Source: Asterionella formosa (lineage: Eukaryota). From it: DNA of 54,806 bases. Of the stretch, positions 13,406 to 44,897 are shown in pieces. The notes under the pieces are model-generated. The model saw nothing but the letters and a program-made list of their open reading frames with translations, ran no database searches and was not told where the DNA came from. Each line of letters starts with the position of its first letter. The stretch's first letter is position 1. Location of the stretch: positions 1 to 54,806 of the forward strand of contig NKIB01013611.1 in assembly GCA_002256025.1 (NCBI GenBank), read 5' to 3'. A program made the position numbers and the translations under genes.

Positions 13406-14002
13406 GCAATTCGAAACCTGGGTCAAGAGAGTACGATGACGATGGATCTTGGAAATTACGGATCAATGTTGAAGAAATGCAACAATACCAGGTAGAGCAA
13501 ACGAGTGATTACGGACGGTAAAAAGGATACCTGGTACGGTTTTCTAGACGATGATGAGAATACCGGTACCGGTAGTATCGTAATAAGTATTCCCAATAAT
13601 AAGTCTAACTGTTGGAAGCACATTTGTGGTGCGCAAGAAGGCAATGCATATAAGAATTGCATGATAGGAAGTCGCGTGGTTCGATTCTTCCCCGTGACTT
13701 TTCTGATAAATGAATTGTTGTCCTCAGACTCCAACTCCACCATCAGCAGTCCTACTATTATTTAAATGCTGTACCAGGCACACTACCAGTATTGCTTTGG
13801 AACAGGTAACTGGTTTCTGGTACATGTTACCTGGTACCAGGGTACCAGGTACTGTGCTCGCTTGTGGTATCTGGTACCGGGTACCAGGTACCTGGCACTA
13901 AGGAAGAGGACCAGTGCTGGTTTACGCAGCAATGCAAGAACACGTTTAATACATAGACCACCGACAAAAATATGTTTCTTTCATTTAATTAGTTTTTGAA
14001 GT

Positions 14003-18332: not shown

Positions 18333-21300
18333 ATGCGATTTTCTGTACTAACTGTCATTGCAGTCTTGACGCCAGCGAATGCCTTCGGGCCTCACTTCGC
18401 ACTGAGTAGCAAGCGCCTCGCGGTCACCGCGCCATCTGTCGCAACGTCAACTGCCACAAACAGATGGACCAGGGACCAGGGCTTTCGAACAGCCCTGAAC
18501 ATGGCGTTTGAAGGGACGCCAAAGACCTCCAACATGTTTGACGGGCCAGGACCTCTGGTCAGAGAGCGAGACGCTTGTGGAGTCGGTTTTATTGCCAATA
18601 CCAAGTCAGGAGGTACGTCACGGCTTCAGTACAAGATGCAGCGCCGCTCTTAGATCACATATCAACTAACTAGATTCCGTATTGCCCTTCGCTTTCACTC
18701 TTGCCTACCACGACGTATGACTCGTTACAGACGAGTTTGGGACACACAAGGTCCTTCAAGACGGCATTGCCGCTCTCACGTGCATGGAGCACCGCGGTGC
18801 GTGTGGCGGAGACGGTGTTTCCGGCGACGGGGCCGGTGTCATGACACAAATCCCCTGGAAGCTCTTTTCGGAATATCGGTCCGAGAATTGCCCTCGACCT
18901 GGGGTGGGCATGGTTTTCCTTCCACGAGACGAAACACGTCGAAACTCTGTCAAAAAAGTGATTGAAGATGTATGCCGTGCCAATGAACTGGACTTTGTTG
19001 GGTGGCGTCAAGTGCCAGTTGATCCAACCGTATTGGGAAGGATGGCGCGATCCGTCATGCCAAGTATTTGGCAATTCTTCGTCAAGGCGCCAGCTCGTCT
19101 TCGTGACGATGACGCGGAAAGAGATGGGTTTGAACGAACACTCTACTTGGTACGCCGTCGTTTTGATGTGGAACGCAAATTGAGGGGATTGGTGTGGAAT
19201 GACGACGACTGTGAAGCGTATGTGGCTTCGTTTAGCTCACGCACTATCGTATATAAGGGTATGGTGCAGTCAGCTGTCTTGCCACGTTTTTACAAGGATC
19301 TCACAAATGAAGACTACACTACCAAGTTTGTTATCTATCACCGACGTTTTTCGACCAATACCAGCCCTCGGTGGCCTTTGGCACAACCCATGCGTGTGGT
19401 CGGACACAACGGCGAAATCAACACTCTTTTGGGAAATGTGAATTGGATCAAGGCTCGTGAAGCCGCCAAGGGACTTCCCATTGGGTCGGAATTTGATGTT
19501 GACGAGTACACATTCCCGATGATGAACAGTGACACAAGTGCCGGTGACGTCCGGGATTTGGTAGACTATGATTCTACACTGAACATTGTCACCATGTGCA
19601 ATACTCAAGATATTCCTTCGGTTTTGGAGCCTCTCATTGACTTGAACCGATCCGATTCAGCCAATCTTGATGCCGTCTTCGAGCTCATGTGCAGGTCTCG
19701 GCTCCTTGCTCCATGTGCATTGATGGCCCTGGTGCCGACTGCATATGAAAACAACCCAGATCTCAAGGACTATCCTGAAATTGTTGACTTTTACAAGTTC
19801 CATGGAGGCATTTTGGAAGCTTGGGATGGACCTGCGCTTTTGGTATTTTCTGATGGAAAATCAATTGGTGCATCTTTGGATCGCAATGGTCTTCGCCCTG
19901 CTCGTTATTCCATCACAAAGGATGGAACTGTATACATGATGAGCGAGACTGGTGTCATTCCTGACATGGATGAATCTCTTATTATTGAAAAAGGACGTCT
20001 TGGGCCTGGTCAAATGATTCATGTTGATTTAGCCACTGGAGAGTTCAAAGGCAATCTCAAGATCAAGTCAGAAATTGCCAAGCGTAAGTAGCACCTGCAG
20101 AGTAAACTGGAAGTCTGCATAAGTGGGAAAGGTGGACTCAATCATTCTGATTTTTTCATTAACAGGTCATCCATACGGTGAGTGGATAGCCAATCAGCGA
20201 AAGGAAGTCAAGAAAATGGATTTTGCTCCTGAACGTATCTACGACGATGTAACTGCTACTTTTGCTCAAGGCACCTTCGGATGGGGTCTTGAGGATATTG
20301 GCATGCAGATTGCGGATATGGCGGGATCTGCCAAGGAGACCACGTATTCTATGGGCGATGATGCTCCGTCTGCGGTCTTGTCTGTGAACCCGCAGCCTCT
20401 GTACAATTATTTTAAGCAGCGATTTGCCCAAGTTACCAACCCTCCTATCGATCCGCTCCGTGAGGGTGTTGTGATGTCGCTTGGTATGGCTCTTGGAAAG
20501 AAGGAAAGTATCTATCGGGTTTCTGAAAAGGGGGCTCGCCTTATCCACCTTGATTCACCTGTAGTCAATGGCCCCGAGATGGACCTGATTAAATCCTACG
20601 AAATTAACGGAGGATTCAAGCATGGTACTCTCAGCACTCGGTTTGATCTTGCCGATGGTCCCGATGGCATCAAGGCCGCTCTTGATAAACTTTGTGACGA
20701 CGCTGTAGAACAAGTTAGTAGCGGTGTAGAAGTTCTTATTTTGAGTGACTACGCTGAGAATAAAGGCGTGCTTGAGGAGACAACCTATATTCCTCCTCTA
20801 CTCGCAGTCGGTGCCGTCCATCACAGACTGATTGAGCGTGGACTTCGTATGGACACCGGTATTATTGTTGAAACTGGTGGAGCCTGGTCCACACATCACT
20901 TTGCTTGTTTGGTTGGATACGGTGCCAATGCTGTTCATCCATACCTCGCTCTGGAAACGGTTCGTCAGTGGCACGGACAAGAGAAAATCCAGAAGATGAT
21001 GGAGGCCGGAAAGCTTAAAACCACTACCCTAGCGCAAGCCCAAGCCAACTACCGTGTTGCAGTCGAAGATGGGCTCAATAAGATTTTGTCAAAGATGGGT
21101 ATTTCCTTGTTGACTTCTTATGCCGGAGCACAAATCTTTGAGGCCATTGGACTAGGAGAAGAGGTGATTAACTATAGTTTCAAGGGTACGACCAGTCGTA
21201 TCGGCGGTATGTCGTTGTCGGAGATTGCGTCAGAGACTGTAATGATGCGCCCAGAGGTTGACTCTGCTAAGATGAAGCTCATCAACTACGGGTTTTACAA

Positions 21301-23656
21301 ACCCGTTCCAAAATTAGGCGAGTACCATGTCAACTCCTCTGACTTGGCAAGACTCTTGCACAAAGCTATCGGGCTTGACAAAGGTGTAAGTGCAGCTACT
21401 AACCGCGACGAGCTTGAGAATGACGGAGTCCAAGCTGCCAGTGCTGCCGACTATGAAATCTTTAAGAAGAGTTTGGAAACTGCTCCACTTGCTAATGTTC
21501 GAGACTTGCTCGATTTTGACTCCGACCGTGAGAGTATTCCAATCGAGGAAGTCGAGCCTTTGGCGGAAATTATGCAGCGTTTCTGTACCGGAGCCATGTC
21601 CTTAGGTGCTCTTAGTCGCGAGGCACACGAGACCCTAGCAATTGCGGTTAACCGCATCGGAGGGAAGTCTAACTCTGGCGAAGGTGGAGAAGATGTTATT
21701 CGGGGGAAAATTATTTCGGATGTAGATGGCAATGGCCGTAGTCTATCGTTCCCTCACCTCGCTGGATTAAAAAATGGTGACTCCGCCAACTCTTTCATTC
21801 ATCAGGTTGCAAGTGGCCGTTTCGGCGTTACCCCTGAATTTTTGGTAACAGCAAAGCAATTGGAGATTAAGATGGCGCAAGGTGCCAAACCCGGCGAGGG
21901 TGGCCAGCTTCCGGGGCCGAAGGTGTCTGAATATATAGCTACTTTGCGGTCCAGCAAACCTGGTGTCACTCTCATCTCCCCTCCTCCACACCACGACATT
22001 TACTCCATCGAGGATCTTGCGCAACTAATCCATGACTTGCACGCGATCAACGAGAAGGCTGGCGTTTCCGTCAAGCTCGTGTCATCAATTGGTATCGGAA
22101 CTGTTGCATGCGGTGTCGCGAAGGCTAACGCTGATGTTATCCAGATTTCAGGAGGTGATGGAGGAACAGGTGCTTCTCCCCTGTCGTCGATCAAACACGC
22201 TGGATGCCCATGGGAGTTCGGTCTTGCTGAAGCCCACGCTGCCCTGACCAACAACGGTCTCCGAGATCGTGTTACCATTCGTGTGGATGGAGGTATCAGA
22301 ACAGGACGTGATGTCGCCATTGCTGCCATGATGGGAGGCGAAGAATTTGGATTCGGGACTATTGCTATGATTTCTGAAGGCTGCATTATGGCTCGTGTTT
22401 GCCATCTCAACACATGTCCTGTTGGTGTAACTAGTCAGAAAGAAGAGCTTCGTAAGAAGTTTCCTGGAACGCCCGAACATGTTGTCAATTTTTTCCATTT
22501 CGTAGGGGAAGAGGTTCGTCAGTTAATGGCTCATCTCGGATACTCGCGCTTTGAAGATTTGATCGGGCGTACTGATCTGTTGAAGGAGAGCAAGAAACAG
22601 AAATTGCGTGTTGCCAAGACGAAAGGAATTGATCTCAATAACTTCTTCTCTGGTGCTCCTGACACTAGAATTGACCGTTCGTTCTTGCGGGCCAAATTGG
22701 AAGATGGCACCGAGATTCCCAAAGAAGAAAATATTCATGTAAACGGCTTCAGTTCCCATCTCGACCGTGAGTTGTCTGGGAACGCTGGTATCAAGAAGGT
22801 TATTTCTGAGAACACCGGCGAATTCGTCGTGACGTATAATATTTATAACACCGACCGAAGCGTCTGTGCCATGCTCTCGGGAGACATTGCACGTGCTCAC
22901 GGCAATAATGGCTTTGAAGGGAAGATCACTGTGCAGTTCAACGGAAGTGCTGGTCAGTCGTTCGGTGCGTTCGTTCTACCTGGCTTGAACGTTCGCCTTC
23001 AAGGCGAGGCCAACGACTACGTTGGAAAGAGCATGCATGGGGGAGAAATTGTTGTTGTTCCTGACTCCAATGCTGGCTTCGTCGCTGCCGACTCCAGTAT
23101 TGTTGGTAACGCATGTCTCTACGGTGCAACTGGGGGTGATTTCCATGCCAATGGACGCACTGGAGAACGTTTCTGTGTCAGAAATAGTGGCGCCTTTGCT
23201 GTTGCTGAAGGAGCTGGCGACCATTGCTGTGAGTACATGACCGGTGGTGTTGTTGTGATGCTTGGCAGCGTAGGCCGCAATGTTGGTGCAGGTATGACAG
23301 GAGGTATTGGATACTTTTACGATGCTGATGGTTCCTTCCAAGAGAAGGTTAATCGTGAGATTGTGAAAGTGCAACGTGTAGTGACCGTCGCTGGTGAAGC
23401 ACAACTCAAGAGCATGATCGAGCGGCACTTTGAGAAGACTGGAAGTGAGAGAGCTGAAGAAATTTTGAATGACTGGAAAACCGAAGTTGGCAAGTTCTGG
23501 CAAATCTTTCCCCCATCCGAGGCCCAGTCTACGGTAGTGAACGACATTGCAGTAGGAGTTTTAAGAGTTTCTGCGGCTGCACCTGAAGGCGATCTGTGTT
23601 TTCTTTCTGTAGGTGATCAACTATCCCCTGACCAAACCGCTAGATGCGCAGACTAA
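18333..23656 (+). CDS. gltB: Plastid glutamate synthase, ferredoxin-dependent type; exons 18333-18612, 18731-20083, 20166-23656
   Basis: ERDA/CGVGF Ntn cysteine, HRRFSTNT, HNGEIN, GAMSLGALS, QGAKPGEGGQLP, 3Fe-4S CIMARVCHLNTC, GXGXG domain; no fused NAD(P)H beta domain; signal peptide + ANAF. Confidence 0.96.
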
Positions 23657-27693: not shown

Positions 27694-28677
27694 CTAGGAA
27701 GTGAGATTTTGCGCATCGTCCTTACTAACTTCTGGTTGACTTTCAAGCACTTCTCCAATTGGAGTCTTGTGCTTGGATGCCAATACTGACACATCCAACT
27801 TTGATGCCAAAAGCCACGGAACAATTTTCCCTAGGGTCGATTGCTTCCGAACCGTCAATAAATGATCCATTGTGCCATAAAACTGAAATTCAGGTAAATA
27901 AAGTGCCATGTAAAAGCAACGCATCACCTTACAGATAAATCGCTGGAACTAGTATGTACAGGTCAGGTTGGTTCGCACAATTTTGAAACATCCAGGGTTG
28001 ATCCTTGCCCAAGAATCGATCCTTATTGGCATCTAAAGGCTCATAGTATGTCTTGGTCCGTCGCAGAAGTCCCTCTTTATGATGAAACCACCACCAAAAT
28101 AGTTTTCCTGAATCAGTTGTCGCACATCTAAAAAGATACCCTGCTTCTTTCTGAGATTTTAAGGGAGATATCGAATCATGCGCTTGTAATAAAGCAAAGG
28201 GTTTCGAAGATAACCCATGTCGACCCAAGCAAAGAAATCGGAATTAAAAATAATTCTCAGGAATTGCAAGGTCCACAAGTCACAAAGTGGCCTTTTTCAT
28301 TCCAAACAATAGATGTACTCCACCTGGTACCTGGACATCTAGTAAGGACCTAGTTAGTACCTGCAAGTTGAGGTAATTGTGCTGAATATAAAGATTTAGC
28401 TTCCTTTATCCCATATTATTAAATTGTTTATTTAGGCGAAATTACCGTAATATAGAGCAAAAGTTGCGATAAATATGATGAAGCGACGATTTGGACATAA
28501 ATTAGTAAGACATTCACCCCAGCCAATCCAATACTTAAAGAAATACTCTCGCCGACTCATATAAACGTTATCTTCCATTCGTGGCATCGCTGATCTTTTT
28601 GAACCGTTTTTCCCTGGAATTCGATTCAGCCGGAAATATTTAGTATAGTGAAACTCAAAGTCTTGAAACTCAAACAA
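27694..28677 (-). pseudogene. Possible disrupted or multi-exon gene of unknown function
   Basis: Three consecutive minus-strand ORFs, two separated by a stop and 1-nt shift at 27928-27931; no family recognised, no clean splice model. Confidence 0.25.
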
Positions 28678-29341
28678 GGTAGTTTCAACCTGTAATTCTA
28701 CTTATACAGACAATTTAGGTAAGGACGAAGATGGCTAAGTGAGTAGCTCTGGTGATATTATCAGAAATGCGTCAAAACATTGGTTTTGATAACGACAGCA
28801 TCTTCCTAATCGGGGACGAGGAGGCAAGTTTGCGCGTCTACAACTCTGCCTATATGGTGGTATATACGGCTATGAAGGAGAAGAACATGAATGTCTCGAC
28901 GAATACTGGACAAAAACAATATTCCGGACCAAGGCATAAATTTGTCCAATGTACGCCTGATAAGTAGAAAAGGTCGATGACTTCTGGTAGTGTGGAGTAT
29001 TGCCTAATACCGGCATATATCACTGTTGAATATCGGCAATCTAGAAGTACAGCCAGCATCGTGATTCATGCTCCTTTTGTCAATGCAATACAGTACTGTC
29101 ATACTGGTTGTCGCTATTGGCCACTACTACCGGCTAGGGTCCAACAGGAAAACAAGAGGATTAATCCCCGCATCATATTACTCGGTCGCCTCTTCGGAGA
29201 CATCCGTGTGTGTCCAACCGGTTAGATCATTTTGCATAACTCGGTTAGATTCCTGATTCGTTCCTTCCTCTTGCATTGATTGCCGAGCGCACCGTCAGCA
29301 TTGACGTGAGTTATATTTCGGTACTAGTGTAGTCTTGAAAT

Positions 29342-32300
29342 ATGGGTTTGCCGAAGGAAGGAGCCGTCGTTGATGAAGACCCTTACGGAAACTTTTCATA
29401 TAATGATACCAGACGGGCCCATGAAGATGACGATTCATCCTCGAGCTCATCAAGTTCAAGTAGCAGTGCTTCATCAGCAAACTACTCGTCGAATTCCCGC
29501 TCAGAATCTCAGTCGGAAAGTTCGCACAGCGAGACATCTCGAAGTGAATCCTCGCGAAGTGCAACTTCCCAAAGTGAAAACTCCTCACAACACGTAACGA
29601 CGAGCCCCAGTGAAAGCAGTTCGGGCAGTGCAAGTGAAAGCTATTCATCAAAAAGTCGGTCGAGCGTGTCAGAGAGTGATTCAAACAGTCTGGACAGCGA
29701 GGACTCAGAGTCTTCTGACAGTGAATCAGAAGAAAGTGGTTCGCGAAGGTTGGAGAAAGATGACAACTACGATGGGAAAAGTAGTCGATCGGGAACTTCA
29801 GAAAGTGTGTCGGAAAGCGAGTCGGATTCTGAGTCGTCCAGCCCATCTGAATCGTCATACTCAGAGCTAGAGGAAGACCCAGTCGACAATCGACGAAGGG
29901 GCACGCGTTCCGAGGGCAACAAGCCTGAGCTAAATACCGGTGATTCACCGCGTGGATTCAGCGATGACTACAGAGACCACTTAGGTTTTCAAGAAGAATC
30001 TCCATCCGGGTCAACCCCGTACGATGGAGAAGGTCACGATGGTCGACGGTCCCTGGAGCGAACTATTTCAAGTGACCAAGGTGGCGTTCCTCTTAGACGT
30101 GCCCAATCGCCGACTACAACTGTCTCGTCACTCAGTGCTTCACTGGTTACTGGTGTTTTTAGCATGTCCCAAGCGAAAAGGCGTACTCATCACGACCATG
30201 ACGACGATGAGGACACCCTGGATGAAGAGCCTGTTGTCAAACCTCACCGTCGGAAACGTCGAGGACAACGCTCTTCTGCACTTGATGAGCTCGAAGCAAA
30301 TTTGGCAGAAACGATGAGTGTCCTCACACCAGAAGAAAATCGGAAAACAGTTCGTGAACTTGTTGCCATGAGAGAAAAAGGGGAGGGGTATGATCGTGGC
30401 GAAAGTGTTGACGTAACCACTCACACGTCTCATCATTTGCTCCATGGATTTGAGGCGCTGCTTGGTGCCCTGCTCCAGCTATCAGATGAACTTGAGTTGA
30501 TCAGTACCTTTGGTGGTGTCACATTAGACGGGCAATCTACCGTGGTTAGTTCCGATGCATTAAATGCAGTATTGAGTCATGCTCCAACTCTCGATCAAGT
30601 ATTCACTTCACTTAAGCCAATTCTCCAAAACTACCTAGAAGAGGAATCTGACGATGAAATGGATCATTTATTAGGACGTGCACAAAAGCTCGTCCGCCTT
30701 TTATGCGAAATTACTTACCGTGTCTGTCAACGGCAAGAATGGAATCCACGAGCTGAAACGGCATATGTGACTCTGCTTGAGCTACTGGAAAGAACAACTT
30801 TGGAAATTGCATGCGTGTATGAAGATCAGTCTGTTCCGGAATACCAGCTGTCAGGTAATTTGCGAAGAGCGTGGGCTGCGACTGGGCACGTGGAAGAGTT
30901 GAAAACACTGTATGTGACCAATGATACTTGGCTTTTTCGCCAAGTATGCTACGAAGTGTTGGTATCAACAGATCAGTGGTGCCCCAATACTCGTGATCTT
31001 GGGTCGGTCTGCGATGTAGCCAACTCAGTTATGGACGAAGAAGCTAGTGTCCCTGATCCCGAAGCGCGGCTAGCACCGACACCTCAGGCTGCTTTGCAAG
31101 TCTTGGACAAAATAAATGGTGAACCCCTTCTGCGATCATCAATGATGGCGTCGATTTTGCGGCGCATCCTTCCTCCGCATGCTATGACAGACACAGCCGT
31201 TTTGGACAGCTTTTCTTCCATTAGATCAACCATTCGAAATCCACTGGGGCTCTCTGGCACTACCAATACAGTTGCAATTTCGTCGATTTCCGAAGACTTA
31301 AGTGATCCCAAGGCGATGGGTATGGCTGGAGTGGGAAAGACAACAATGGCTGCATTGGTAGCCAGGCATTCTGACGTCCGGCGATTTTTTAAGGATGGTA
31401 TCGCATGGGTTCATGTAGGGAAGGAGGAGTTGGACTATAAGAGATATACACAGTGTTTGCGCGAGTTGGTAGCTCAATTGGTCTTTTACGATGGCGATCC
31501 CCTCTTTGCTGAGCTTTTGCACACTCCTGGTGAACCGTCGTCTAAGAGGAAGCGACGAGAAGAAGGCTTTATGATTTACGCTCGCGATACGGTGACTGAT
31601 CTCTTGCAAATGAGAAATGTGCTCGTAATTCTTGACGACATCTACTATGAACAAGACCTAGAATGGTTTCATTTCATCCCGCAGGTACCCCAAAAATCAC
31701 GTCTATCGAAGAAGAAGGAGGAAGCTTTTTCATCAAGTCTTTTAGTGACTACGAAAATGAGAGACCTCTTACCAGCTGCGGATACTGTCGAAATCGATTT
31801 GCTTGAAGAAACAGATGCTATTAAACTCCTGGTAACTGAATCTGGACAATCATCTGATCACGTGATGGCATCATCGAAGGAAGCGCGACAGGTCGTTCGC
31901 GAATGCGCCAACCACCCGTTGGCTGTTAAAAGTGTTGGGCGTTGGCTGTCTCTGAAGCATGCAACCGCTGGAGTGATTAGTAGTGTGGAAGAAATTCACG
32001 AAGATGTTGTGAAATCGATTGACAAAATTTTGAATGGAACAGATAAAGAATCTGATATGATTTATGAAATTATGGGAATGAGCTTTTCCCCAGCAGTCAA
32101 TGGTCAACCGACAAATGTGATCAAGTTTTGCTTTGCTGCATTTGTACAGGTTTTCTGTTGTGAAAAATATTTGTCGGAGTTTACTCCGTCGAACACCCCA
32201 CCAATGGTTCCGTGGGCAACGGCTGCGCTGCTTTTTGAAACACTTTTGGAGATGGAAGAAGAAACATTGTTCCAAGAAGGAAGTCTGTTTTATTCTCAGC

Positions 32301-35110
32301 GAAAAGAGGCTACAATTCTCATTCCAGAAGCCCTTTCTGCCCTTGGGGTTTTGAAGCTAATCACCACGTACGAGGAAGACGACGATGAATCTGATGACAA
32401 CTCAAGGGGAAGCCTTGGCGAAGAAAGGTTTCTGCAGATCATGCATGTCATTCAACATGAGTATGGGGAATATCTTTCTACTGAAGAAAAAGGAATGAAG
32501 GAACTTACGCACGATGCAGAGCGTCGATGGAATCGAGCCTTCGTCGAAGCTTACATGATGCAAGCCGAAGATTGGGATTCGGAACTTCCTGATTCGTCAC
32601 GTGATTATGCGTTAGAACTTCTCGTCTCGCACATGCTTCGAGCTGAGATGTTCGCTGAAGCCGCTAAATTGCTGGCTGACGAGAGCTTTGTGAGGGGCCG
32701 CATGCTTGCACTCGGCAGGGAAAACGCAACCCGTCGTCACATCAAGGACTGCGAACTTCTTTACAAGCTCGTATCTGTAAAGGTGGAAACAACGAGAGTA
32801 TCTACCGATCCAAGAACAGCAATGATTCGGGCTTACGAAACTCTAGGAAGTCTGTTGAGGACGGAGGGTGCAGGGAACAATATAGAGGAAGGACGAATGC
32901 TCTCCATCGAGGCTGGTCGAGCACACTACGAGATCGGTTTTTCTCTTTCCGAGAAACGATGCTTGGATGCAGCAATCGCGCATTGGGAGAGTAGCCAGGA
33001 ATTGCTTCTCTCTTCTCTTGGCATGGTCGAGTTTGTGGCTGCAATTTTATACAATGTTGGAGTAGTGTACGCTGAAATGAACGAATACGAGCAAGCGCTC
33101 GCGTCATTGAAGCAGTGTCTTCGTATTCGAGGAGCCATCCATGGAGAAGAGCATATTCTCTACGCTCAGACCATTCAAAAAATTGGTGACGTCTTTCTTG
33201 GTATGAGTGACTACACTGAAGCAATGGAAAGTTACAACTGGGCAATTGATGTGATGCACATTGAACCCAGTCATCATCGAGTTGATATCGGTGATATCCT
33301 TGATAACATGGGCAACACACATTACAGTAAGGGTGAGGTTCCAGAAGCACTACGATGTTATCAAGATGCATTACGATCGAAGAAAGTTGAGCTTGGAGAT
33401 GACCACCCCGAGCTCGCTGTCACATACCAACACATTGGAAACTGTCTCTCAGACCAAGGTGACACCGACGAAGCTATTGCTCACTTTGAAGAAGCTATCC
33501 GGCTGAAGGAGCTAGACCCTGATGGGGAAGCCGAAAGAGATGCCGATGTGCTGTCCATAGAAGGCGTGCTCAACAACTTGACTGGACGACAAGAGGATGG
33601 GTTACTGTGCTACGAAAAGTCGCTCGAAATCTTGGTTACCAAGGTGCCTCATAGAAAGGAAAAAATTGCGGCCTTACTTCACTTGATTGGTTGTGTTCAC
33701 TTAATGAATGGCGAACACAAAAAGGCCATGAAGCTTTTCGAAGAAAGTTTGCAAGCTCGACGAAAAGTCCTTGGCTTTGTCCACTTAGATGTTGCCAGCA
33801 CATTATTCAATATGGCTTTCTTGCATCAAACCCGAAATCGCCTCGACAAGGCCCTGAAATGCCTAGAAGAGGCCTTGAAGATCCGTCAGTTACGGCTTCC
33901 AGACAGTGAGAAGGTTGCGCTTACTCACGAGAAGATTGGCACGCTCGCGAAAGCGATTGGGAAGAGTAAGAAAGCAGAAATATCATTTGAAGAAGCACTG
34001 CGCATTCGTCGCCTAATTCATGGTGATGAGCACGAAGCTGTGGCGACTGTTCTGCATGAAATGGGTGACCTTATGGATGATCTTGGAGAATATGACGAAG
34101 CCATGAACAACTATGTTGACGCCCTCAACATTCGACGAAAACGACTCGGGCTGCACGAAGATGTTGCTGCTACTTTGTATAGCATGGGATTCACGCTTCA
34201 CAATCAAGATCAATCTCAACGCGCCCTGAAGTGCTTCGAGGAAGCTCTGAATATCCGGAAGGCCCGACTCGGTGAAGAGGCTAAGGAGGTAGGAGACACG
34301 CTCAATATGATGGGATTTCTTCAAGCTAAAAGTGGGGAACTAGACAGCGCTCTCACGCTTCTCTGGGACGCGCTTCGCATCCGCAAGGCACACAAAGATG
34401 ATGTAAAGGTCTCCGAGACGCTTAAAAATATCGGCAATGTCCATCGTGAAAAGCAAGAACATGAACTTGCTGTCGAATGTTATGAAGAATGCCTCAGAAT
34501 TCGTCGTAGCGAACTTGGTGACGACCACGAAAAGGTTGCTGATGCGCTCATTGCTATTGGAAACGTCCGCAGTGACATGGAAAGAATAGACGATGCAATG
34601 CGGGCTTATCAGGAAGCCCTCCAGATTCGCACCGTGGTGCATGGTGAAAATGATGAACGCGTTGCTGCCGTCCTCCAGTATATGGGCACAATGGAGTTTC
34701 GAGCTGGTGATTTAGACCGAGCTCGTGCTTTCCTGGAGGATTTCGTTCGCATTCGCAAACAGAACAATTCACAAAATGACGGCGACTACGTCAACGTTTT
34801 GTTCATGATTGGTAATATCCACAAGATTCAAGGTGACGATATTGCAGCTAAGCGATGCTGGTCGGAAGCATATGATGTGTTCCAAGAGCTTGGATTGGCC
34901 AGTGAGAACCCACAGATTGCCCGTGTAATGGATAGTCTCTTGCATGGAAGTAGAAGTACCCGCGCACCATCTCAAAAGCGACCTCCTCAGGATGATGAAA
35001 GAATGCCAAACAGGCCGCCAGGTGGCTTCATTGGTCGTATTACTGCTAGTCTCAAGGATACATTGCGAGAAGAAAAATTGCCAAAGTATTTAGGCCCAAA
35101 TAAGCATTAG
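29342..35110 (+). CDS. STAND NTPase (NB-ARC-like)-TPR protein, NLR-like architecture, 1922 aa, no intron
   Basis: Walker A GMAGVGKT (31319-31342), Walker B VLVILDD (31619-31639), sensor-like LLVTTK, GLPL-like CANHPLAV, MHD-position MHV (32441-32449), then many ~42-aa TPRs; Ser-rich N-terminus. Confidence 0.9.
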   Translation: MGLPKEGAVVDEDPYGNFSYNDTRRAHEDDDSSSSSSSSSSSASSANYSSNSRSESQSESSHSETSRSESSRSATSQSENSSQHVTTSPSESSSGSASESYSSKSRSSVSESDSNSLDSEDSESSDSESEESGSRRLEKDDNYDGKSSRSGTSESVSESESDSESSSPSESSYSELEEDPVDNRRRGTRSEGNKPELNTGDSPRGFSDDYRDHLGFQEESPSGSTPYDGEGHDGRRSLERTISSDQGGVPLRRAQSPTTTVSSLSASLVTGVFSMSQAKRRTHHDHDDDEDTLDEEPVVKPHRRKRRGQRSSALDELEANLAETMSVLTPEENRKTVRELVAMREKGEGYDRGESVDVTTHTSHHLLHGFEALLGALLQLSDELELISTFGGVTLDGQSTVVSSDALNAVLSHAPTLDQVFTSLKPILQNYLEEESDDEMDHLLGRAQKLVRLLCEITYRVCQRQEWNPRAETAYVTLLELLERTTLEIACVYEDQSVPEYQLSGNLRRAWAATGHVEELKTLYVTNDTWLFRQVCYEVLVSTDQWCPNTRDLGSVCDVANSVMDEEASVPDPEARLAPTPQAALQVLDKINGEPLLRSSMMASILRRILPPHAMTDTAVLDSFSSIRSTIRNPLGLSGTTNTVAISSISEDLSDPKAMGMAGVGKTTMAALVARHSDVRRFFKDGIAWVHVGKEELDYKRYTQCLRELVAQLVFYDGDPLFAELLHTPGEPSSKRKRREEGFMIYARDTVTDLLQMRNVLVILDDIYYEQDLEWFHFIPQVPQKSRLSKKKEEAFSSSLLVTTKMRDLLPAADTVEIDLLEETDAIKLLVTESGQSSDHVMASSKEARQVVRECANHPLAVKSVGRWLSLKHATAGVISSVEEIHEDVVKSIDKILNGTDKESDMIYEIMGMSFSPAVNGQPTNVIKFCFAAFVQVFCCEKYLSEFTPSNTPPMVPWATAALLFETLLEMEEETLFQEGSLFYSQRKEATILIPEALSALGVLKLITTYEEDDDESDDNSRGSLGEERFLQIMHVIQHEYGEYLSTEEKGMKELTHDAERRWNRAFVEAYMMQAEDWDSELPDSSRDYALELLVSHMLRAEMFAEAAKLLADESFVRGRMLALGRENATRRHIKDCELLYKLVSVKVETTRVSTDPRTAMIRAYETLGSLLRTEGAGNNIEEGRMLSIEAGRAHYEIGFSLSEKRCLDAAIAHWESSQELLLSSLGMVEFVAAILYNVGVVYAEMNEYEQALASLKQCLRIRGAIHGEEHILYAQTIQKIGDVFLGMSDYTEAMESYNWAIDVMHIEPSHHRVDIGDILDNMGNTHYSKGEVPEALRCYQDALRSKKVELGDDHPELAVTYQHIGNCLSDQGDTDEAIAHFEEAIRLKELDPDGEAERDADVLSIEGVLNNLTGRQEDGLLCYEKSLEILVTKVPHRKEKIAALLHLIGCVHLMNGEHKKAMKLFEESLQARRKVLGFVHLDVASTLFNMAFLHQTRNRLDKALKCLEEALKIRQLRLPDSEKVALTHEKIGTLAKAIGKSKKAEISFEEALRIRRLIHGDEHEAVATVLHEMGDLMDDLGEYDEAMNNYVDALNIRRKRLGLHEDVAATLYSMGFTLHNQDQSQRALKCFEEALNIRKARLGEEAKEVGDTLNMMGFLQAKSGELDSALTLLWDALRIRKAHKDDVKVSETLKNIGNVHREKQEHELAVECYEECLRIRRSELGDDHEKVADALIAIGNVRSDMERIDDAMRAYQEALQIRTVVHGENDERVAAVLQYMGTMEFRAGDLDRARAFLEDFVRIRKQNNSQNDGDYVNVLFMIGNIHKIQGDDIAAKRCWSEAYDVFQELGLASENPQIARVMDSLLHGSRSTRAPSQKRPPQDDERMPNRPPGGFIGRITASLKDTLREEKLPKYLGPNKH

Positions 35111-35778
35111 CTCCTAAATTGCCATGTCAATATAATCATTAGAGCATATCAAATTATGAGCATCAGTTGCAGCGCTCTCCTTCACATCCTTTTTTTATGT
35201 AGATCTGATTGCACTTTAAAAAGGTGTCATGCAAAAGGTACATATGAGGATAGCCTTATGAAGTAGCAAGATGCACATGGCTGATAGCATACATATTCAG
35301 CATCGTACAGAAATCTATCAGAGAATCTTCTTTTACACGTTTGCCAAAGTAAATCATAATATTCCCATGGCCTCTTGCCGAATTAGCACTCTCCAATTTT
35401 TAGGCCCTGCGACATTTCAACCTAATTCGCCTGCCAATTCAGCTGCTGCTTGAGGCGATAATAACGTTTGTTGATTTTCGTGTTGCTGGACATGTTGGAG
35501 GATGGTTGGTGGAGAAAAACAAAGATTGAAGCTAGTAGCTAATAGTACAAGTATTGATGATGCATTATGTCAGTTAGCTAGTATGTGGAATCCTTACTGC
35601 ATCACCACAAAGCTCTTGTGAAATTGTCTATGCATGTTGCTCTAAGCAATCTGATCTGACAATTGACCATTCTGGATTCAAGGGCCCCTTGGACGTTCTG
35701 GTGAGTCATACTATGACTTTGGCCTTTTGGTGAGAAGACAAGGGGACTGCAAAGGATAAGGAAAGGTTGTGAGCAGGT

Positions 35779-36296
35779 TGGGCCTATCAGCCAGGAAGCC
35801 CACCAGATCTGCATTGTGGTGCATGGTGAAAACTGTGAACACATTGCTGCCTTACCAAAGTATACTACGAGTGTAATAGAATTTCGTCCTGGCAATTTAG
35901 ACTGAGTTCATGATTTCCTGGGGCATTTCATTTGTATTTGCAAGCAGAACAATCTACAAAATGATGGTGACTAGCTATGTCTATGCACATCAACATTTTG
36001 TTCATGACTGGTACTATTATTCAGTAGGTTCAATCTGATGATATTGCAGCTATGTGATGGTGCTGGTTGGAAGTGCACAAAGTACACCAATGGCTTGGAT
36101 TGGCCAGTGAGAACCCTCAGAATTCCCATTTAATGTATATTAGTTGCCCACCATCCTCTCAGAAGTGACATGATGTTGTAGTTTCAGTGTCAAACAGGTC
36201 AATGGTTGGCTTCATTGTTGGCCAATACTACCACTGCTGGTCTCTAGGACACATTGAAGGGAGAAAAGTTGCCACAGTTTGTTAGGCCCTAAACAG
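35779..36296 (+). pseudogene. Decayed tandem duplicate of the last ~500 bp of the NB-ARC-TPR gene
   Basis: Colinear with 34601-35105 (gtggtgcatggtgaaaa, cagaacaat, ttttgttcatga, gatattgcagcta, gcttggattggccagtgagaaccc, ttaggccc) but with indels and stops. Confidence 0.92.
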
Positions 36297-36512
36297 TTTT
36301 TCCTATACCTGATGGTACTCTATTTCTATCTCAATACCGGTAAACCACCGGCATCACTTGAATTACTATGAGCAATTTCATGTGATAAAAGAACTACCTT
36401 TAGCCGTCACCGCACAAAAAATGCACAGAAGAGAACCATTATTTATGCATGTCATGATATATTTTATCTGCATCGTGAAATCTTGATTCCGTGTTGTGAT
36501 AGTTTGGCCTCA

Positions 36513-38073
36513 ATGATCGCCATGAAGGGGTCAGCGTCTGTGTTCTTTCGGCGACGATCGCTTCCACGAGGTTGCTATCACCATGTCGATCTCTCCTGTT
36601 TCTTGGGTAAGAATGAGAATGACCGGCAAAGGAGGCAGCGATCGTTTCTAAGCCAACCTCCAATGCCAAGATCATCACTCACCAGAAATGCTGAACCGAC
36701 ATTTTGTTCCACGCGGCCAATGTCAATGATGCCTGATTTCATGTCGAACCTCCACTTCTGGGGCGGTGCCGGCGTTATGATAAAGGCGATTCACTTTAAT
36801 GGAGCCATTCCATATTGGACCTCCATCGCGCTCTTCAATGTTTCGGTCCGAACAGGACTGTTTCCTTTCGTCATTTATTCAGCGCATAACGCATCCAGAT
36901 TCGCCAAAGTGGCCCCCGAAGTGCAGTTCGCCATCACTGTTTTCCAAAACGATTTGAAAAAGAGTCGAGCAGAAGGAACAAGCCCGAAAGAGCAGGCTCG
37001 TCTCTTTCGCCAAGTCCTAGAGCTCATTTCGGGATTATATAAACTTCACAGTGTTAATCCACTCAGTGTATTCATTTCGCCACTCTGTCAGATTCCCATC
37101 TTTTGGTACTTTAGCGTCGATTTGAGAAAAATCATCAATGGAGCGGACCCGGGCCTGGCGCAGCAACTGACTGAAGGAGGCATGCTTTGGTTTCCAGATC
37201 TCACCAACCCGGATCCTTGGTTCGCTTTGCCTGTATTAAGTGGCCTATTGCTATACTATAACGTTGAAGTCGCAGTGGGTAAAGCATCTCTGAGCGGGGA
37301 GGTCGCTAGTAAGAGTAACTTGGCTATGATTTTGAAAGACGCATTTCAGAGTACGTAACGAATGAAGCACCACTGCAGGTCAATACTACGCTTGAACCTA
37401 ATCACTGACACACCCATATTAAGGCCTTGCTATCTTCATGCCGGGATTCGTGTCCCAATCTCCTGCCGGTGTTCAAATTTATCTGCTGACATCGTTCACT
37501 TTCACGCTTTTTCAGAGCTATGCTCTCCGCAGTGACACATTTCGAAAAATCATTGGCCTTCCCCTGAAATCCAGCGAAGTCCCTATTGAACCTATTTACG
37601 CCAAGGGTTTCATCGAATTGAAAAAATGGGAAAAGAAAGCAATAGCAGCATGGGGAAATCGGCCAATGCCTGGTGATGGAATCATGGCCGCAGGATTCAA
37701 GATAGCCATGCCTGGGAGGAAGCGACCTTCAACCATAAAGGGGAGCGGTATTCAACCACTAGACCTTGATGATATGTATATACCAACTCCTCGCATGCAG
37801 ATTCCGCAGCAACATGTTACGTTCATTCATGGTATATCGGCTCCGATTGAAGAAATGCCCTTTGCAGTCACGGAGCCCAAAGAAGAGAAACACGCACCCA
37901 CATTGGTTACGACGATGAATGTTTCAGACTTAGACATGGAGCGAGCGAACCGCGGAGAAGTACCACTCAAGTATCTCAAGAAGATTGAACCAGACGTCAG
38001 ACCCAATGAACTCAACCTTAAACGATTCAAATTACAATCGACCAAGAAGAAAGGAGTTGGGAAAAAACGTTAA
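36513..38073 (+). CDS. Oxa1/Cox18 (YidC family) mitochondrial inner-membrane insertase; exons 36513-37350, 37424-38073
   Basis: PYWTSIALFNVSVRTGLFP, PLCQIPIFWYF, GGMLWFPDLTNPDPWFALP, PAGVQIY; Arg/Ser-rich presequence. Start codon uncertain (36513 or 36522). Confidence 0.88.
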
Positions 38074-39879: not shown

Positions 39880-41140
39880 CAAAATGAGGCAAATGGCCGA
39901 AAAAAGAAAATGACAATGACAGGGGCAATAGAGGGGTGGAATGAAGCAAAAGTAAGAAGTCTTGTTAACTTTGCTTTATTCTATCCAAACTCAAAATCAT
40001 TCTTTTTCCGGCCGAGCGAAGCGATGAAAACAACCAATAATGAACGGTTCTATATTTATTAGGATTTGAATATTCATATGCTTGCATCATCATATGTAAC
40101 AACTATTGGTACCTGATATAAGTCATATTTTCATACCACAATTTGCATGTTGGCTGGCTGGACTTATGCTGCTCAAGGTTTTAACTGAGGTAGCACTTGT
40201 AAGCCATTGTAGATTTGGCTTATATTACTCGATTCTTTTGTATATCATGTATGCATACCAGTATAGCACTACGAAATACTGTGTAGTCATCGTGAGCAGC
40301 TGGCGAATGCATGGTGCATCATGTCATGATCTCAGCCTTGACCATGAAATATTTAATTAATATCTCAATGAAAAATGAGAACGACGCTTTGCTATGACTA
40401 GGCACCAAGTACATTTATTAGGCACGATTATGAAAATACAATTGCAAAAGAATAGCTGCAATAACACTAATATTGACAAGGAAAAAAGAAATATCCAATG
40501 GCGCATTTTAAAATGAAATTTATAGATTCACAATTCAAAGCAACAATGTTATCAGCGGATTTTAAAAACTTTCACAGGAGCTGTACAACAACTAGAAGAC
40601 GACTAAAACAATAAAATGATAAATTAAAGCAAACTATTTCAAACAAGTAAATTATTAGTTTGATATGATTGTTTGTATTGAAGATGAAAAAAGGATGTAT
40701 TGTTTCATGGGAATGATGGAAGCATGATGGTGATGAGATTTCAAAAGTGTTTGTTTATCATAGCTATAAGTACTGTTATGCATACTATGTTCTATCTTCA
40801 TTAGTCGACAGTTGACAGTCGATATAGCCAGTAGCATGGTGGTAGCTTACAATTGTAGTATACCTAACATGAATATGTACTGTACATACATAATTTATAA
40901 TCCTACTAGGAAAATTGGGTTGTTTGGTTTGATGGTGCTGGCAGTTACAAACTTCCAATTGCAATGAATTTGAAAACTTTAATTGAGATAGGTTTTTTCA
41001 TCACTTTGGCTGGAAAAAGAGAACGATTTTGAGTTTGGAGAGAATAATGGAAAGTAAGCAAGACTTGCTTACTTTCAGGCCACCTCTCTATGATTGCCCT
41101 GCCGGTCATTGTTGTGTTTTGACATTTCCCTGTTGTTTTG
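39880..41140. repeat. Pair of ~150-bp inverted repeats (39880-40035 and 40991-41140) enclosing ~950 bp
   Basis: Left tattctatccaaactcaaaatcattctttttccggcc...gatgaaaacaacc versus reverse complement of right tattctctccaaactcaaaatcgttctctttttccagcc...gatgaaaaaacc. Confidence 0.85.
40283..40595 (+). repeat. Dispersed repeat family B, copy 2
   Basis: Colinear with 6915-7210. Confidence 0.75.
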
Positions 41141-42759
41141 AAGAATATAATTATTAGGATAAAACAAATTTCACTAAGTGGTGATCATATACTGTAAAAA
41201 AACCTTAGATACCAGCATCCTCCTTTGTACATATGGCGCAATGCTCCCAAATATTTCATGTGTACAGAAAAAATAACAGTGTATTATTGTATTCTAGCTA
41301 TTTGTTAATGTATTTATAATAGAATAGTCTTCTTACCAGTAACCATCTTGAAACGACAATCAACACCAACACGAGCGATGCCAATGACAGTTGCAATAGC
41401 AATACCCTTGGCCTGAGATCTATTTCAAGAGTTGAAGCTGCAAGTTGCAAGTTTGTTGTGACACGATTATGAAGCTGAACACGGGCCACTATAGGCTTAG
41501 GCAGTGCTGGCCTTGATGTTGTCGGCTTGCCGGAAGCGGTCATAGTAATATCCATCACAATCCAAGTCGTAAAGTTTACACAAATTAATATTGTTGTAGA
41601 AATAAGTACAAAAGATTACACACTCTAGGAATTAGTATTGATACCATCACGAAACTCTGGCGCAACAGTGCACCAACAATAGAAATTCTACTGATCAGCC
41701 ATAGAAACCGTTTGTACTTACGACAATATATCTATTAAATATTGCTTTTTTCGTTTTAGGCTACGGATAAAAAGGTGGTGAAGTTGGTTTTTTCACAATG
41801 TTGGTTGATCAGAAACGTACCTACCGGTATATCTTGTATTCCCCTCTTAGTAAAATCAGTCGTGGCTGTGTACATAGAAGGATAGGAGACACCTGGTTTT
41901 GAGGTACCGGTAGACGATTTTAAATACCGGGAGTGAATTTGTGACGTTTTCTATGTACCCTGTATTTTAACGCCTGTCCTGCGTCATATTTTCAATTTCA
42001 GCGAAATGACCGCAACTTGCAGGAAACTGTCCTGCGCGGTTCTTCAGCTGCCTGGTTCTACCAGCTACCAGGTAGACTATGCATACTGGTATAGTAGCAT
42101 TTAATACATGCATTATACTAGATACCGTAGCGGACTACCGGTAAGACGACCGAAGTGATGTCGTCAATCGTGACCTTCGAACTTGAGTGCCAGTTTACCA
42201 ATAAGTGAAGCGAAGAATGCAGCGATCAGATGCCTGCCATCAACGGTTCAATTGAAGTTGCAGATACCACATCCCCATCACTGCGGATACTCTGTTACTG
42301 CCTTCCCCTTTGGAAGACCTGTTTGGAACAAGGAGAGGAGATGATCACTAAGGTGCCAATATGAGCTAACAAAATACCGTGAGTAAGTCGTGACTACTTT
42401 CACCTTCAGGTTCACGGACCAGACTCGTCGGGGGCGCAGTTATCTATGGCATAAAGTCAGTTATACATGAATACACGAAGAAACTGTTATAATATTCTAT
42501 TCATGTAAAATAAATGTTCTATATGATATGTAAATGACAAATTGTGGCTTGTGAAATCTTATGTCTTGTGTTTTCTGTAGCGCAGGTACACTCTAACTTT
42601 TCTTGTTGTTTCTGGAAGTGATTCAGTGGCGAATATTTAGGGCGCAACTGGCGCCAAGCTTGCTGCTCCATAGTATACGGTTGTGCACAGAACTTTTTGT
42701 GTTCTTTTCTTTGTCTCTCTCTATAGCCTCTATTTATTCGATCATTCGAGCCTGTGATC

Positions 42760-44460: not shown

Positions 44461-44897
44461 ACTAAAAGGTAATACTTTAACACCATGTAGTAAATTAGAG
44501 GTTGTGTGGGCAGACCAGGTATACCAGGTAGAGTACCTTGTACCAGTAATACAGGGAGAATCTGGAATTCAAGGTCCTCACCAGCATAGAATTACACAAT
44601 TTCAGCCACCATCATGGAATGGCAGAAAATAACATTCTGTTCTCCGCCTGCTCCGCGCTGTCATTTCTTCTTTACATTTCTACTAGGTACTTCCATGCCG
44701 CTGGCAGGCAAAAAATGGCTTTTAGTTGATGGTTCGTGACTATCAGCCTTCTGAAAATTAGCCAACTCAATACTTGCTGCATTGATTCGTCAATCGAGCT
44801 CGTTCACGTGGACTAGTCTATTGAATCGCCTGCTTGCTATACTGCTTAACTCCGCAAAGTTTCAATACTTTCTTCCTCGCAGAAGCAAGCCTCAAAA

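Follow-up and report, generated by a model that had tools for sequence, protein, structure and literature searches.

The closest described relatives of the protein considered here are STAND NTPases: Apaf-1, Dark, and CED-4, the coiled-coil and helper NLRs of plants, prokaryotic STAND-TPR proteins of the MalT/AfsR type, and nephrocystin-3, a conserved animal STAND-TPR protein that is not an immune receptor. In the brown alga Ectocarpus, 24 NB-ARC-TPR candidates were reported, and the proposal that they are immune receptors rests on clustering (12 of the 24), rapid birth and death, encoding of each TPR by one 126-nt exon, exon shuffling, and diversifying selection on the TPRs (Zambounis et al., 2012, PMC3341825). 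In the diatom Thalassiosira pseudonana, the NB-ARC TPR protein Thaps3_22882 was found by proteomics; that report discusses it as cell-death related, refers to Nedelcu (2009) for cell-death domains in diatoms, and gives its abundance as 0.78-fold under nitrogen limitation and 1.21-fold under phosphorus limitation (PMC5599023). The gene analyzed here, located at 29342..35110 on the forward strand of the Asterionella formosa contig NKIB01013611.1 (54,806 nucleotides, the whole of which is called the window below), encodes a protein of the same general composition, NB-ARC followed by TPRs. The original prediction took it for an NLR-like non-self sensor, by analogy with fungal and brown-algal proteins, and mentioned a conserved scaffold as the other option. 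The analysis points elsewhere. With a probability of about 0.6, the protein is a conserved Apaf-1-like nucleotide-gated switch that reads a conserved ligand, a cytosolic signal-transduction ATPase, and its TPRs, the putative ligand-binding part, are its slowest-evolving region.

The gene is real and is expressed as an intronless poly(A) mRNA. Its coding sequence is a single uninterrupted open reading frame (ORF) of 1922 codons plus stop, with exactly the predicted coordinates; the ATG is the first codon past the upstream in-frame stop, and the stop-to-stop frame opens 3 bases upstream. The transcribed region, 28993..35160 (+), includes a 5' untranslated region (UTR) of ~350 nt and a 3' UTR of ~50 nt. 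A poly(A) RNA contig of 6170 nt (X1) is colinear with 28993-35160, from which it departs by 2 other letters and, in the 5' UTR, one 2-nt insertion, and a contig of 5953 nt from a different study (X5) covers 29134-35086, ending 24 nt before the end of the ORF. The mRNA is taken to be intronless because no joints were present in any of the four RNA runs, from four studies, that were aligned to the gene. At least part of the gene stretch was found in 15 RNA runs (the 17 matching entries come from 14 studies), and eight RNA runs contain half or more of its sampled words. By their descriptions, all of the entries derive from lake or fresh water or from an algal culture-like library. One of the runs, X8, carries a variant 95-99% identical to the gene, which comes from a related strain or species. 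Both X1 and X5 lack coverage of 28500-28746 and of 35169-35900, and between 28747 and 28993 X1 shows no more than a trace (0.2); this drop in the flanks is a weak hint of the transcript ends. Within the 5' UTR, the X1 and X7 contigs both differ from the window by 2 nt inserted after 29161 and by C>T at 29167, a small allelic difference (29161-29167) seen in two studies. An antisense ORF of 217 aa at 29295-29948 (-) overlaps the Ser-rich coding region; the RNA contigs are unstranded assemblies, and rather than being a gene this ORF most likely arises incidentally from the low-complexity codon repeats.

The molecular identity of the product is secure: it is a STAND NTPase of the NB-ARC (AP-ATPase) clade, as had been predicted, and Pfam, the motifs, and the fold all agree on this; the refuting case named in the original prediction, an NTPase outside the STAND class, does not apply. 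The nucleotide-binding oligomerisation module (NOD), delimited by Pfam, a predicted model, and Foldseek, occupies residues 643-1193 (31268..32920, +) and can be divided into the nucleotide-binding domain (NBD, ~643-820), helical domain 1 (HD1, ~821-900), the winged-helix domain (WHD, ~905-1050), and helical domain 2 (HD2, ~1058-1193). Pfam NB-ARC (PF00931) matches residues 659-915 over profile positions 24-246 of 248 with E=1.9e-19 and a score of 70.3 bits (cutoff, 23.5). In HD2, APAF1_C is matched weakly (residues 1065-1131, E=0.014). The ordered motifs noted in the original prediction are near-invariant in 91 homologs, retrieved by a word-indexed protein search with residues 330-1200 as the query. 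In Walker A (P-loop, G660-T668, 31319..31345, +) the G, G, K, and T are each present in 88-90 of the 91, with K666 in 90, and Walker B (residues 760-766, 31619..31639, +) ends in Asp-Asp, D765 being kept in 90/91 and D766 in 86/91. A sensor-1 or RNBS-B-like TTK follows at residues 803-805 (31748..31756, +), with T in 88/91, T or S in 90/91, and R in 81/91, K being found in this protein and three others. HD1 carries a GLPL-like HPLA at residues 858-861 (31913..31924, +; H in 88, P in 81, L in 90, and A in 78 of 91); the two correspond to the sensor-1 Arg (RNBS-B TTR) and GLPL-type motifs of the clade. The MHD-equivalent, MHV at residues 1034-1036 (32441..32449, +), comes directly after the WHD beta-hairpin, which in the model consists of strands 365-370 and 389-394 with a helix from 397 (model residues), and its His1035 is present in 89/91 homologs, the other two having gaps there. 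Between Walker A and Walker B, the alignment also reveals a conserved basic insert at residues 727-749 of the NBD (31520..31588, +), with R736, R738, R739, E740, F743, and R748 near-invariant in 46 aligned sequences. To our knowledge, it has no counterpart in Apaf-1 or plant NLRs; it could serve as a nucleic-acid or phospholipid contact or as a nuclear localisation signal.

The fold of the NOD leads to the same assignment. The predicted model (predicted local distance difference test, pLDDT, 81; predicted template-modelling score, pTM, 0.78) has 101 Foldseek matches in the PDB at E<=1e-3, with Apaf-1, plant NLRs, and Dark at the head. The best of them are closed, ADP-bound Apaf-1 structures (3shf, E=4.9e-12, template-modelling score TMq 0.47; 1z6t, E=1e-11); the Apaf-1 alignments span 584-587 columns, HD2 included, with E=4.9e-12 to 2.4e-11 and 12-15% sequence identity. 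Next come NRC1/NRC2, ZAR1, Sr35, Roq1, RPP1, and Dark. Active apoptosomes and resistosomes fit worse (TMq 0.27-0.31; apoptosomes, 0.29-0.30) than closed Apaf-1, and for this reason the model is regarded as resting-like. A sequence search of the NOD against the PDB gave one match, the helper NLR ADR1 (E=1.2e-4), and NCBIfam gave one sub-threshold match, to AfsR (14.7 bits against a cutoff of 1430).

The TPR array at residues 1194-1861 (32921..34924, +) consists of ~16 TPRs of 42 residues, of the kinesin-light-chain type, i.e., 15 scored 42-residue units and one unscored 42-residue gap at 1403-1444. Pfam TPR_12 matches in nine stretches (E=1.9e-94), TPR_10 with E=3.4e-63, and TPR_MalT with 59.8 bits; TPR_NPHP3 passes its cutoff (124.9 bits vs 100), which the second-tier paralogs described below do not reach. 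The best natural solved relatives of the array are KLC1/KLC2 (E=2.8e-20). The units share a mean pairwise identity of 26% and at most 45% (105 pairs), and no tandem repeat of the TPR period was found at the DNA level. These values bear out the earlier remark that the TPRs are diverged rather than near-identical, and they suggest that the divergence is ancient. The C-terminal tail behind the array (residues 1862-1922, 34925..35107, +) is poorly conserved in identity, occupancy, and nonsynonymous divergence (dN): it is 0-51% identical to named orthologs, 71% identical to P0003 (the 89% relative), and has an occupancy of 0.42-0.49.

Comparison of the parts of the protein indicates that the TPR array is the most constrained and slowest-evolving of them. 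Identities to Grammatophora, Nitzschia, and Odontella are 92%, 78%, and 57% for the TPR array, 84%, 71%, and 58% for the ARC, 77%, 63%, and 39% for the NBD, 80%, 55%, and 32% for the conserved N-terminal helical domain (N-domain) described below, and 40%, 18%, and 13% for residues 1-330. In 12 of 13 compared homologs the array aligns one-to-one over 100% of its length, that of Attheya over only 43%. A codon comparison with the metagenomic orthologs L001 (65%) and L002 (64%) gave dN of 0.15-0.18 for the TPRs, 0.22-0.29 for NBD-ARC, 0.36-0.41 for WHD-HD2, 0.41-0.47 for the N-domain, 0.75-1.2 for the C-terminal tail, and 1.0-1.5 for the disordered N-terminal region. The ordering was the same in all three pairs. 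In L003 the frame is interrupted, and 178 of its codons were used. The match there, at 3-1990, is a 74% identical partial ortholog that contains an open stretch of only 180 aa; an intron, a frameshift, or a mistake in the assembly may account for the interruption. Searching L001-L003 by tblastn with five neighbours from the window gave no match, a result that neither supports nor contradicts orthology. Among the strain differences listed, 26 fall in the ORF (61 more lie anywhere in the compared stretch); residues 331-1922 have 9 synonymous and 2 nonsynonymous ones, and residues 1-330 have 5 and 10, respectively. Strongest constraint on the TPRs is the opposite of the pattern described for diversifying NLR-type receptors.

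The distribution of relatives complements this picture. The 91 homologs are 29-100% identical to the query and cover 41-100% of it, and 81 of them cover 95-100%, including the N-domain. All 12 of the organism-named rows among them are diatoms, in agreement with the predicted diatom origin: Grammatophora (78%), Nitzschia (58%), a Bacillariaceae metagenome-assembled genome (MAG, 57%), Cylindrotheca (57%), Pseudo-nitzschia (label Psemu1, 55%), Amphora (51%), Mayamaea (51%), Fistulifera (48%), Epithemia (45%), Attheya (42%), and Odontella (39% and 29%). An exhaustive HMMER search of 1.84 billion representatives returned 491 proteins at E<=1e-3, 146 at E<=1e-10, and 64 at E<=1e-30. Of the weaker tier, 30 representatives were inspected, and the nine that bear organism names are again all diatoms (Conticribra, Thalassiosira profunda, a second protein of the Bacillariaceae MAG, Cyclotella atomus, C. 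meneghiniana, Discostella, and Corethron three times); this second tier is mostly NB-ARC plus TPR_12 once more. No brown-algal, fungal, plant, or bacterial protein occurs among the organism-named HMMER matches. As far as sequence comparison goes, the family is a diatom family made of several old paralog clades.

In a FastTree phylogeny of the NOD region (161 sequences, after 18 near-duplicate cluster members had been dropped from the 179 that qualified), the Asterionella protein belongs to a clade of 101 rows with a support of 98. Its order is Odontella, Thalassiosirales, Attheya, araphids, and raphids, which agrees with diatom phylogeny; the araphid part has 16 rows (with the Asterionella protein, P0003, and Grammatophora) and the raphid part 68, the Bacillariales being separate from the rest. 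Each named species occurs once in the clade, the two Cyclotella atomus entries being near-identical records from two assemblies, and paralogs from the same organisms lie outside it, namely Odontella P0092 and SGILL_004141 of the Bacillariaceae MAG, whose SGILL_004247 is inside. An IQ-TREE quick search (LG+G4, 47 chosen rows) recovers the orthogroup clade with an SH-aLRT of 96. These trees argue that the gene belongs to an orthogroup that is old, has been passed on vertically within the diatoms, and spans much of their tree, with mediophyte centrics at one end and raphid pennates at the other. With the Thalassiosirales member P0106 as query, a search gave one entry each for Conticribra, Cyclostephanos, a CCRYP-labelled record, and two Thalassiosira species; T. 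pseudonana is not among the named Thalassiosirales matches of that search. Many Thalassiosirales members (P0106, P0108, P0302-P0316) lack a precomputed Pfam NB-ARC annotation and sit on a stem of 0.87-0.97; the long stem and the lost annotation imply that the NOD is strongly diverged there, with the TPRs still recognisable. One Thalassiosirales member has been automatically named 'Nephrocystin-3' by UniRef. A further observation concerns P0102 and P0116, which, with P0147 and P0149, form a small, very divergent NB-ARC group in which P0116 has no TPRs detectable at E<=1e-5. This group may be the part of the family most worth testing for receptor-like evolution.

What the original prediction described as one N-terminal region is indeed present; it is made of two different parts, an unconserved Ser-rich stretch and a conserved helical domain. 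Residues 1-344 (29342..30373, +) are Ser/Asp/Glu-rich, low in complexity, variable in length, and probably disordered, as their composition and non-conservation suggest. In residues 1-330, S occurs 92 times, E 37 times, and D 30 times (S+D+E fraction 0.47), and this stretch is 13-40% identical to named orthologs and 64% to P0003, a basic cluster lies at residues 300-311, and the equivalent region of the 91 homologs measures 0-1749 residues, with a median of 723. The N-domain (residues ~362-560, 30425..31021, +), recognized from a predicted model and conserved positions, is all-helical: pLDDT exceeds 90 over model residues ~28-225, which form four long helices and a small helical subdomain. It has invariant Trp/Cys positions, and W133, E146, W177, D194, and W212 are invariant (alignment numbering). 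Matches to the domain extend to more remote members of the family, namely P0095, P0111, and P0137. A linker to the NBD (residues 561-642, 31022..31267, +) is modelled with low confidence (pLDDT 42-64) and is conserved, with a mean identity of 44-56% across homologs and conserved P247, L254, R273, R274, and P277 (alignment numbering).

Assignment of the N-domain to a known family was attempted in several ways. Pfam finds no family in residues 1-655 at E<=10, Foldseek with the N-domain model gives 0 matches in the PDB at E<=1e-3, and the PADLOC defence models yield 0 families for the N-domain or the NOD. In a wide fold search the best Z is 9.1, within a background for helical bundles that reaches up to ~13. 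Seven of the 50 listed rows are NLR coiled-coil, CC-R, Sw-5b SD, or MLKL four-helix bundles (Z 5.8-7.8), and unrelated bundles score equal or above (TMEM175, Z 9.1; HIP1R, Z 8.2). The coiled-coil domain of Rx superposes over 97 of 107 residues at 2.4 A, which is within the same background. A protein atlas queried with residues 355-640 gave a best score of 0.78 and, for the fungal NLR N-domain SesA, 0.77, in a scale where values below 0.8 are noise. The resemblance to NLR bundles and to SesA is, at this noise level, a lead only. No CARD appears among the listed fold-search matches, an absence from a list that is not decisive, and Pfam is blank in residues 1-655. A search for shorter, stand-alone N-domain proteins returned 13 matches, 53-83% identical, and no independent family; they look mostly like truncated fragments of the same family. 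Prediction of a two-copy complex of residues 359-564 scored 0.00, with the fold of the chain itself uncertain and the alignment not used, and says nothing either way. The N-domain is best described, on the basis of its model, as a family-specific helical bundle that lacks a known family or a convincing fold match.

On these grounds, the protein is most readily understood as an Apaf-1-like switch, and its mechanism can be outlined from the STAND proteins Apaf-1, CED-4, plant NLRs, and MalT. By this analogy, a closed ADP-bound form would be held shut by the WHD His together with the repeat domain. A ligand that binds the TPR solenoid would release this form and allow exchange of ADP for ATP, nucleotide exchange would drive oligomerisation through the NOD, and the oligomer would gather the N-terminal helical domains, which would constitute the output. 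Since the TPRs of different diatoms align one-to-one and change at a slower rate than the ATPase, the ligand is most likely a conserved molecule, and their conservation suggests an endogenous protein or peptide or a stress signal. The logic would then most likely be that of Apaf-1 and cytochrome c, as opposed to a polymorphic receptor that keeps pace with variable pathogen effectors. The output could be cell death, stress signalling, or some other conserved process, and an Apaf-1-like role as a cell-death or stress switch is possible by analogy. A bolder version, which we offer as doubtful speculation, places the orthogroup as the upstream initiator of regulated cell death in diatoms, similar to an apoptosome or resistosome. 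The TPRs would sense a conserved internal danger signal (e.g., a released organelle protein or a stress metabolite), the clustered N-domain would execute death or recruit metacaspases, and the divergent paralog clades would be pathogen-facing sensors that feed into the orthogroup as their helper.

Several points weigh against the proposed Apaf-1-like switch or the orthology on which it draws. The MHD motif lacks a conserved Asp, its third position being variable (F, S, R, V). Synonymous sites are saturated in the comparisons with L001 and L002 (pS 0.77-0.91), and dN alone, with no dN/dS, can be compared. Single copy means one entry per named species in databases clustered at 90% and 50% identity, and this clustering would hide recent duplicates; organism names are attached to 12 of the 91 rows and to nine of the 30 clusters inspected. 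IQ-TREE places the divergent P0102 and P0116 inside the raphids (stem 0.98, support 83), where FastTree has them outside, so that they are either a fast-evolving raphid duplicate or a long-branch artefact, and the claim of a strictly single-copy gene is weakened accordingly. Oligomerisation and signalling through the N-domain are carried over from analogous proteins. A full-text literature search found no published study of this diatom orthogroup and no functional, localisation, ligand, or infection report on the gene or the orthogroup. Finally, conservation of the sensor domain is compatible with immunity, and the helper NLR ADR1 is the sole sequence-level match of the NOD in the PDB.

The last two points belong to the alternative that survives best, which we consider unlikely: the protein could be an innate sensor of a conserved pattern or a helper NLR, its TPRs reading a conserved viral or parasite fold or the signal of other sensors and its N-terminal bundle executing death or defence. 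Conserved-pattern receptors and helper NLRs, such as bacterial Avs, NAIP, and ADR1/NRC, are themselves conserved, and Avs and NAIPs detect conserved targets via conserved sensor domains. The tripartite STAND architecture matches that of NLRs, the ADR1 match fits a helper, the further paralogous NB-ARC-TPR clades of diatoms could be the sensors, and the seven NLR- or MLKL-type bundles in the fold search, with SesA in the atlas, could be read as hints of an executioner. However, these fold leads lie within background (Z below ~13, atlas scores below 0.8), and PADLOC recognized neither the N-domain nor the NOD. Coiled-coil, HeLo, and MLKL executioner domains stand at the extreme N-terminus, which is needed for membrane insertion of the first helix, whereas the bundle described here lies behind 344 residues, and behind a median of 723 in the 91 homologs. 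The literature search, moreover, found no infection-response report, and the abundance of Thaps3_22882, of unconfirmed orthology, changed only 0.78- and 1.21-fold under nitrogen and phosphorus limitation (PMC5599023).

A constitutive scaffold or adaptor similar to nephrocystin-3, in which a KLC-type solenoid binds conserved cargo or partner peptides (e.g., in trafficking or at the cytoskeleton) and the NTPase merely regulates assembly, is rather unlikely. It would account for the TPR array being the most conserved part, for KLC1/2 being its best natural solved relatives, and for the TPR_NPHP3 score above the cutoff; the UniRef name of the Thalassiosirales member, expression in many freshwater metatranscriptomes under no known challenge, and the housekeeping neighbours are also in line with it. 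The automatic name, though, reflects the type of TPR only. The switch motifs are all conserved (the Asp-Asp of Walker B, the Arg/Lys of sensor-1, and the WHD His), the predicted closed Apaf-1-like NOD with its HD2 would argue for a working nucleotide-gated switch, and the conserved N-terminal helical domain resembles an output module rather than a passive tail. The alternative offered in the original prediction, a conserved scaffold, and the condition it named as refuting, a single-copy gene under purifying selection, fit better than an immune sensor; the single-copy element is retained only in the form of one entry per named species, with the P0102/P0116 offshoot set beside it. A fast-evolving polymorphic pathogen receptor of the Ectocarpus or fungal type, with TPRs that diversify to track variable non-self ligands, as the non-self reading of the original prediction would have it, is very improbable: the domain composition is shared with the 24 Ectocarpus candidates (PMC3341825), and P0102/P0116 is a possible divergent raphid offshoot, but the TPRs are one-to-one in 12 of 13 homologs, the most conserved region, and lowest in dN, the mRNA is intronless with no near-identical repeats, the 54.8-kb window holds no cluster of related genes, and the branching of the tree mirrors that of the species, each named one being represented by one entry.

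The surroundings of the gene in the window are housekeeping genes. No second NB-ARC was found among the 17 other long ORFs scanned in the 54.8 kb, and the neighbours encode, among others, a family-A DNA polymerase, a ferredoxin-type glutamate synthase, a fibrillin-like protein, an Oxa1/Alb3 insertase, a UBA-UBX protein, an SHNi-TPR protein, a WD40 protein, and a kinase fragment. The polymerase ORF (10115-13462, -; 1116 aa) combines a 3'-5' exonuclease, SAP, and a family-A DNA polymerase (E=3e-76) and looks like an organelle-type enzyme. The glutamate synthase (18721-23653, +) extends over two adjacent frames, 18721-20088 and 20123-23653, as would be expected if a short intron or a change of frame lay near 20090-20120. 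The Oxa1/Alb3-type insertase (36372-38070, +) and the UBA-thioredoxin-like-UBX protein (44850-46289, +) are each split into two nearby ORFs, probably by one intron each; unlike them, the NB-ARC-TPR gene is intronless over 5.8 kb. The AT-richest part of the window is 40001-42000 (GC 0.356 vs 0.39-0.50 elsewhere), and no ORF of at least 120 aa lies between 39875 and 42763.

Diatoms account for about one fifth of global primary production, and their blooms end partly by regulated cell death and infection; we know of no upstream sensor of either that has been defined in diatoms. The gene described here combines an intact switch core with a strongly constrained solenoid, the putative site of ligand binding, and with a putative output domain that cannot be placed in any known family. 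It offers a tractable single target in transformable diatoms, provided that the ortholog is present in them, and it is a counter-example to reading every NB-ARC-repeat protein as an immune receptor. Were it a scaffold only, the analysis would still correct the annotation of homologs as 'kinesin light chain', 'nephrocystin-3', or 'TPR repeat protein'.

It is worth considering how the protein compares with the known systems, beginning with the more distant ones. Prokaryotic STAND-TPR proteins (PDB 6mfv; MalT/AfsR type) have the same order of a STAND NOD and a TPR sensor; however, the structural match (6mfv, E=3.2e-5) is far weaker than those to Apaf-1 and plant NLRs, PADLOC has no match, and AfsR stays below threshold. 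Nephrocystin-3 and the kinesin light chains share TPRs of the KLC or TPR_12 type, with TPR_NPHP3 passed, and are likewise encoded by conserved, non-expanded genes. The NTPase here, in contrast, is NB-ARC, and Pfam detects no similarity to the N-terminus of NPHP3 in residues 1-655. Pennate diatoms have no cilia, and for this reason the function of NPHP3 cannot carry over. Thaps3_22882 of T. pseudonana is, like this protein, a diatom NB-ARC plus TPR protein (PMC5599023); orthology is unconfirmed, T. pseudonana being absent from the named Thalassiosirales matches.

The plant coiled-coil and helper NLRs share the NB-ARC fold and its motifs (NRC1, E=3.2e-9; ZAR1, E=3.7e-8), and the N-domain bundle superposes on the Rx coiled-coil and the NRG1 CC-R with Z 7.3-7.7, which is not above background. 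They differ in that TPRs here take the place of leucine-rich repeats, the NOD includes an HD2, the bundle stands away from the N-terminus, and the Asp of MHD is not kept. The Ectocarpus family is also of stramenopile origin and has NB-ARC followed by 42-residue TPRs, whereas the diatom gene is intronless and unclustered, with anciently diverged repeats and TPRs that are its most constrained part (PMC3341825 for the Ectocarpus genes). Apaf-1, with Dark and CED-4, is the nearest of the known systems. The order of NBD, HD1, WHD, and HD2 followed by a repeat sensor is the same, closed ADP-bound Apaf-1 is the best structural match, HD2 has the weak APAF1_C match, the His of the WHD motif is conserved, and in both cases a conserved gene is found rather than an expanded receptor family. 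The differences concern the two ends and the role: no CARD was detected here, its place being taken by an unrelated helical bundle behind a long disordered region; the sensor consists of TPRs instead of WD40 propellers; and a link to caspases or metacaspases would be hypothetical here. The architecture is thus of a known kind, and what is new in it is the family-specific N-domain, the diatom-wide orthology, and the inverted pattern of constraint.

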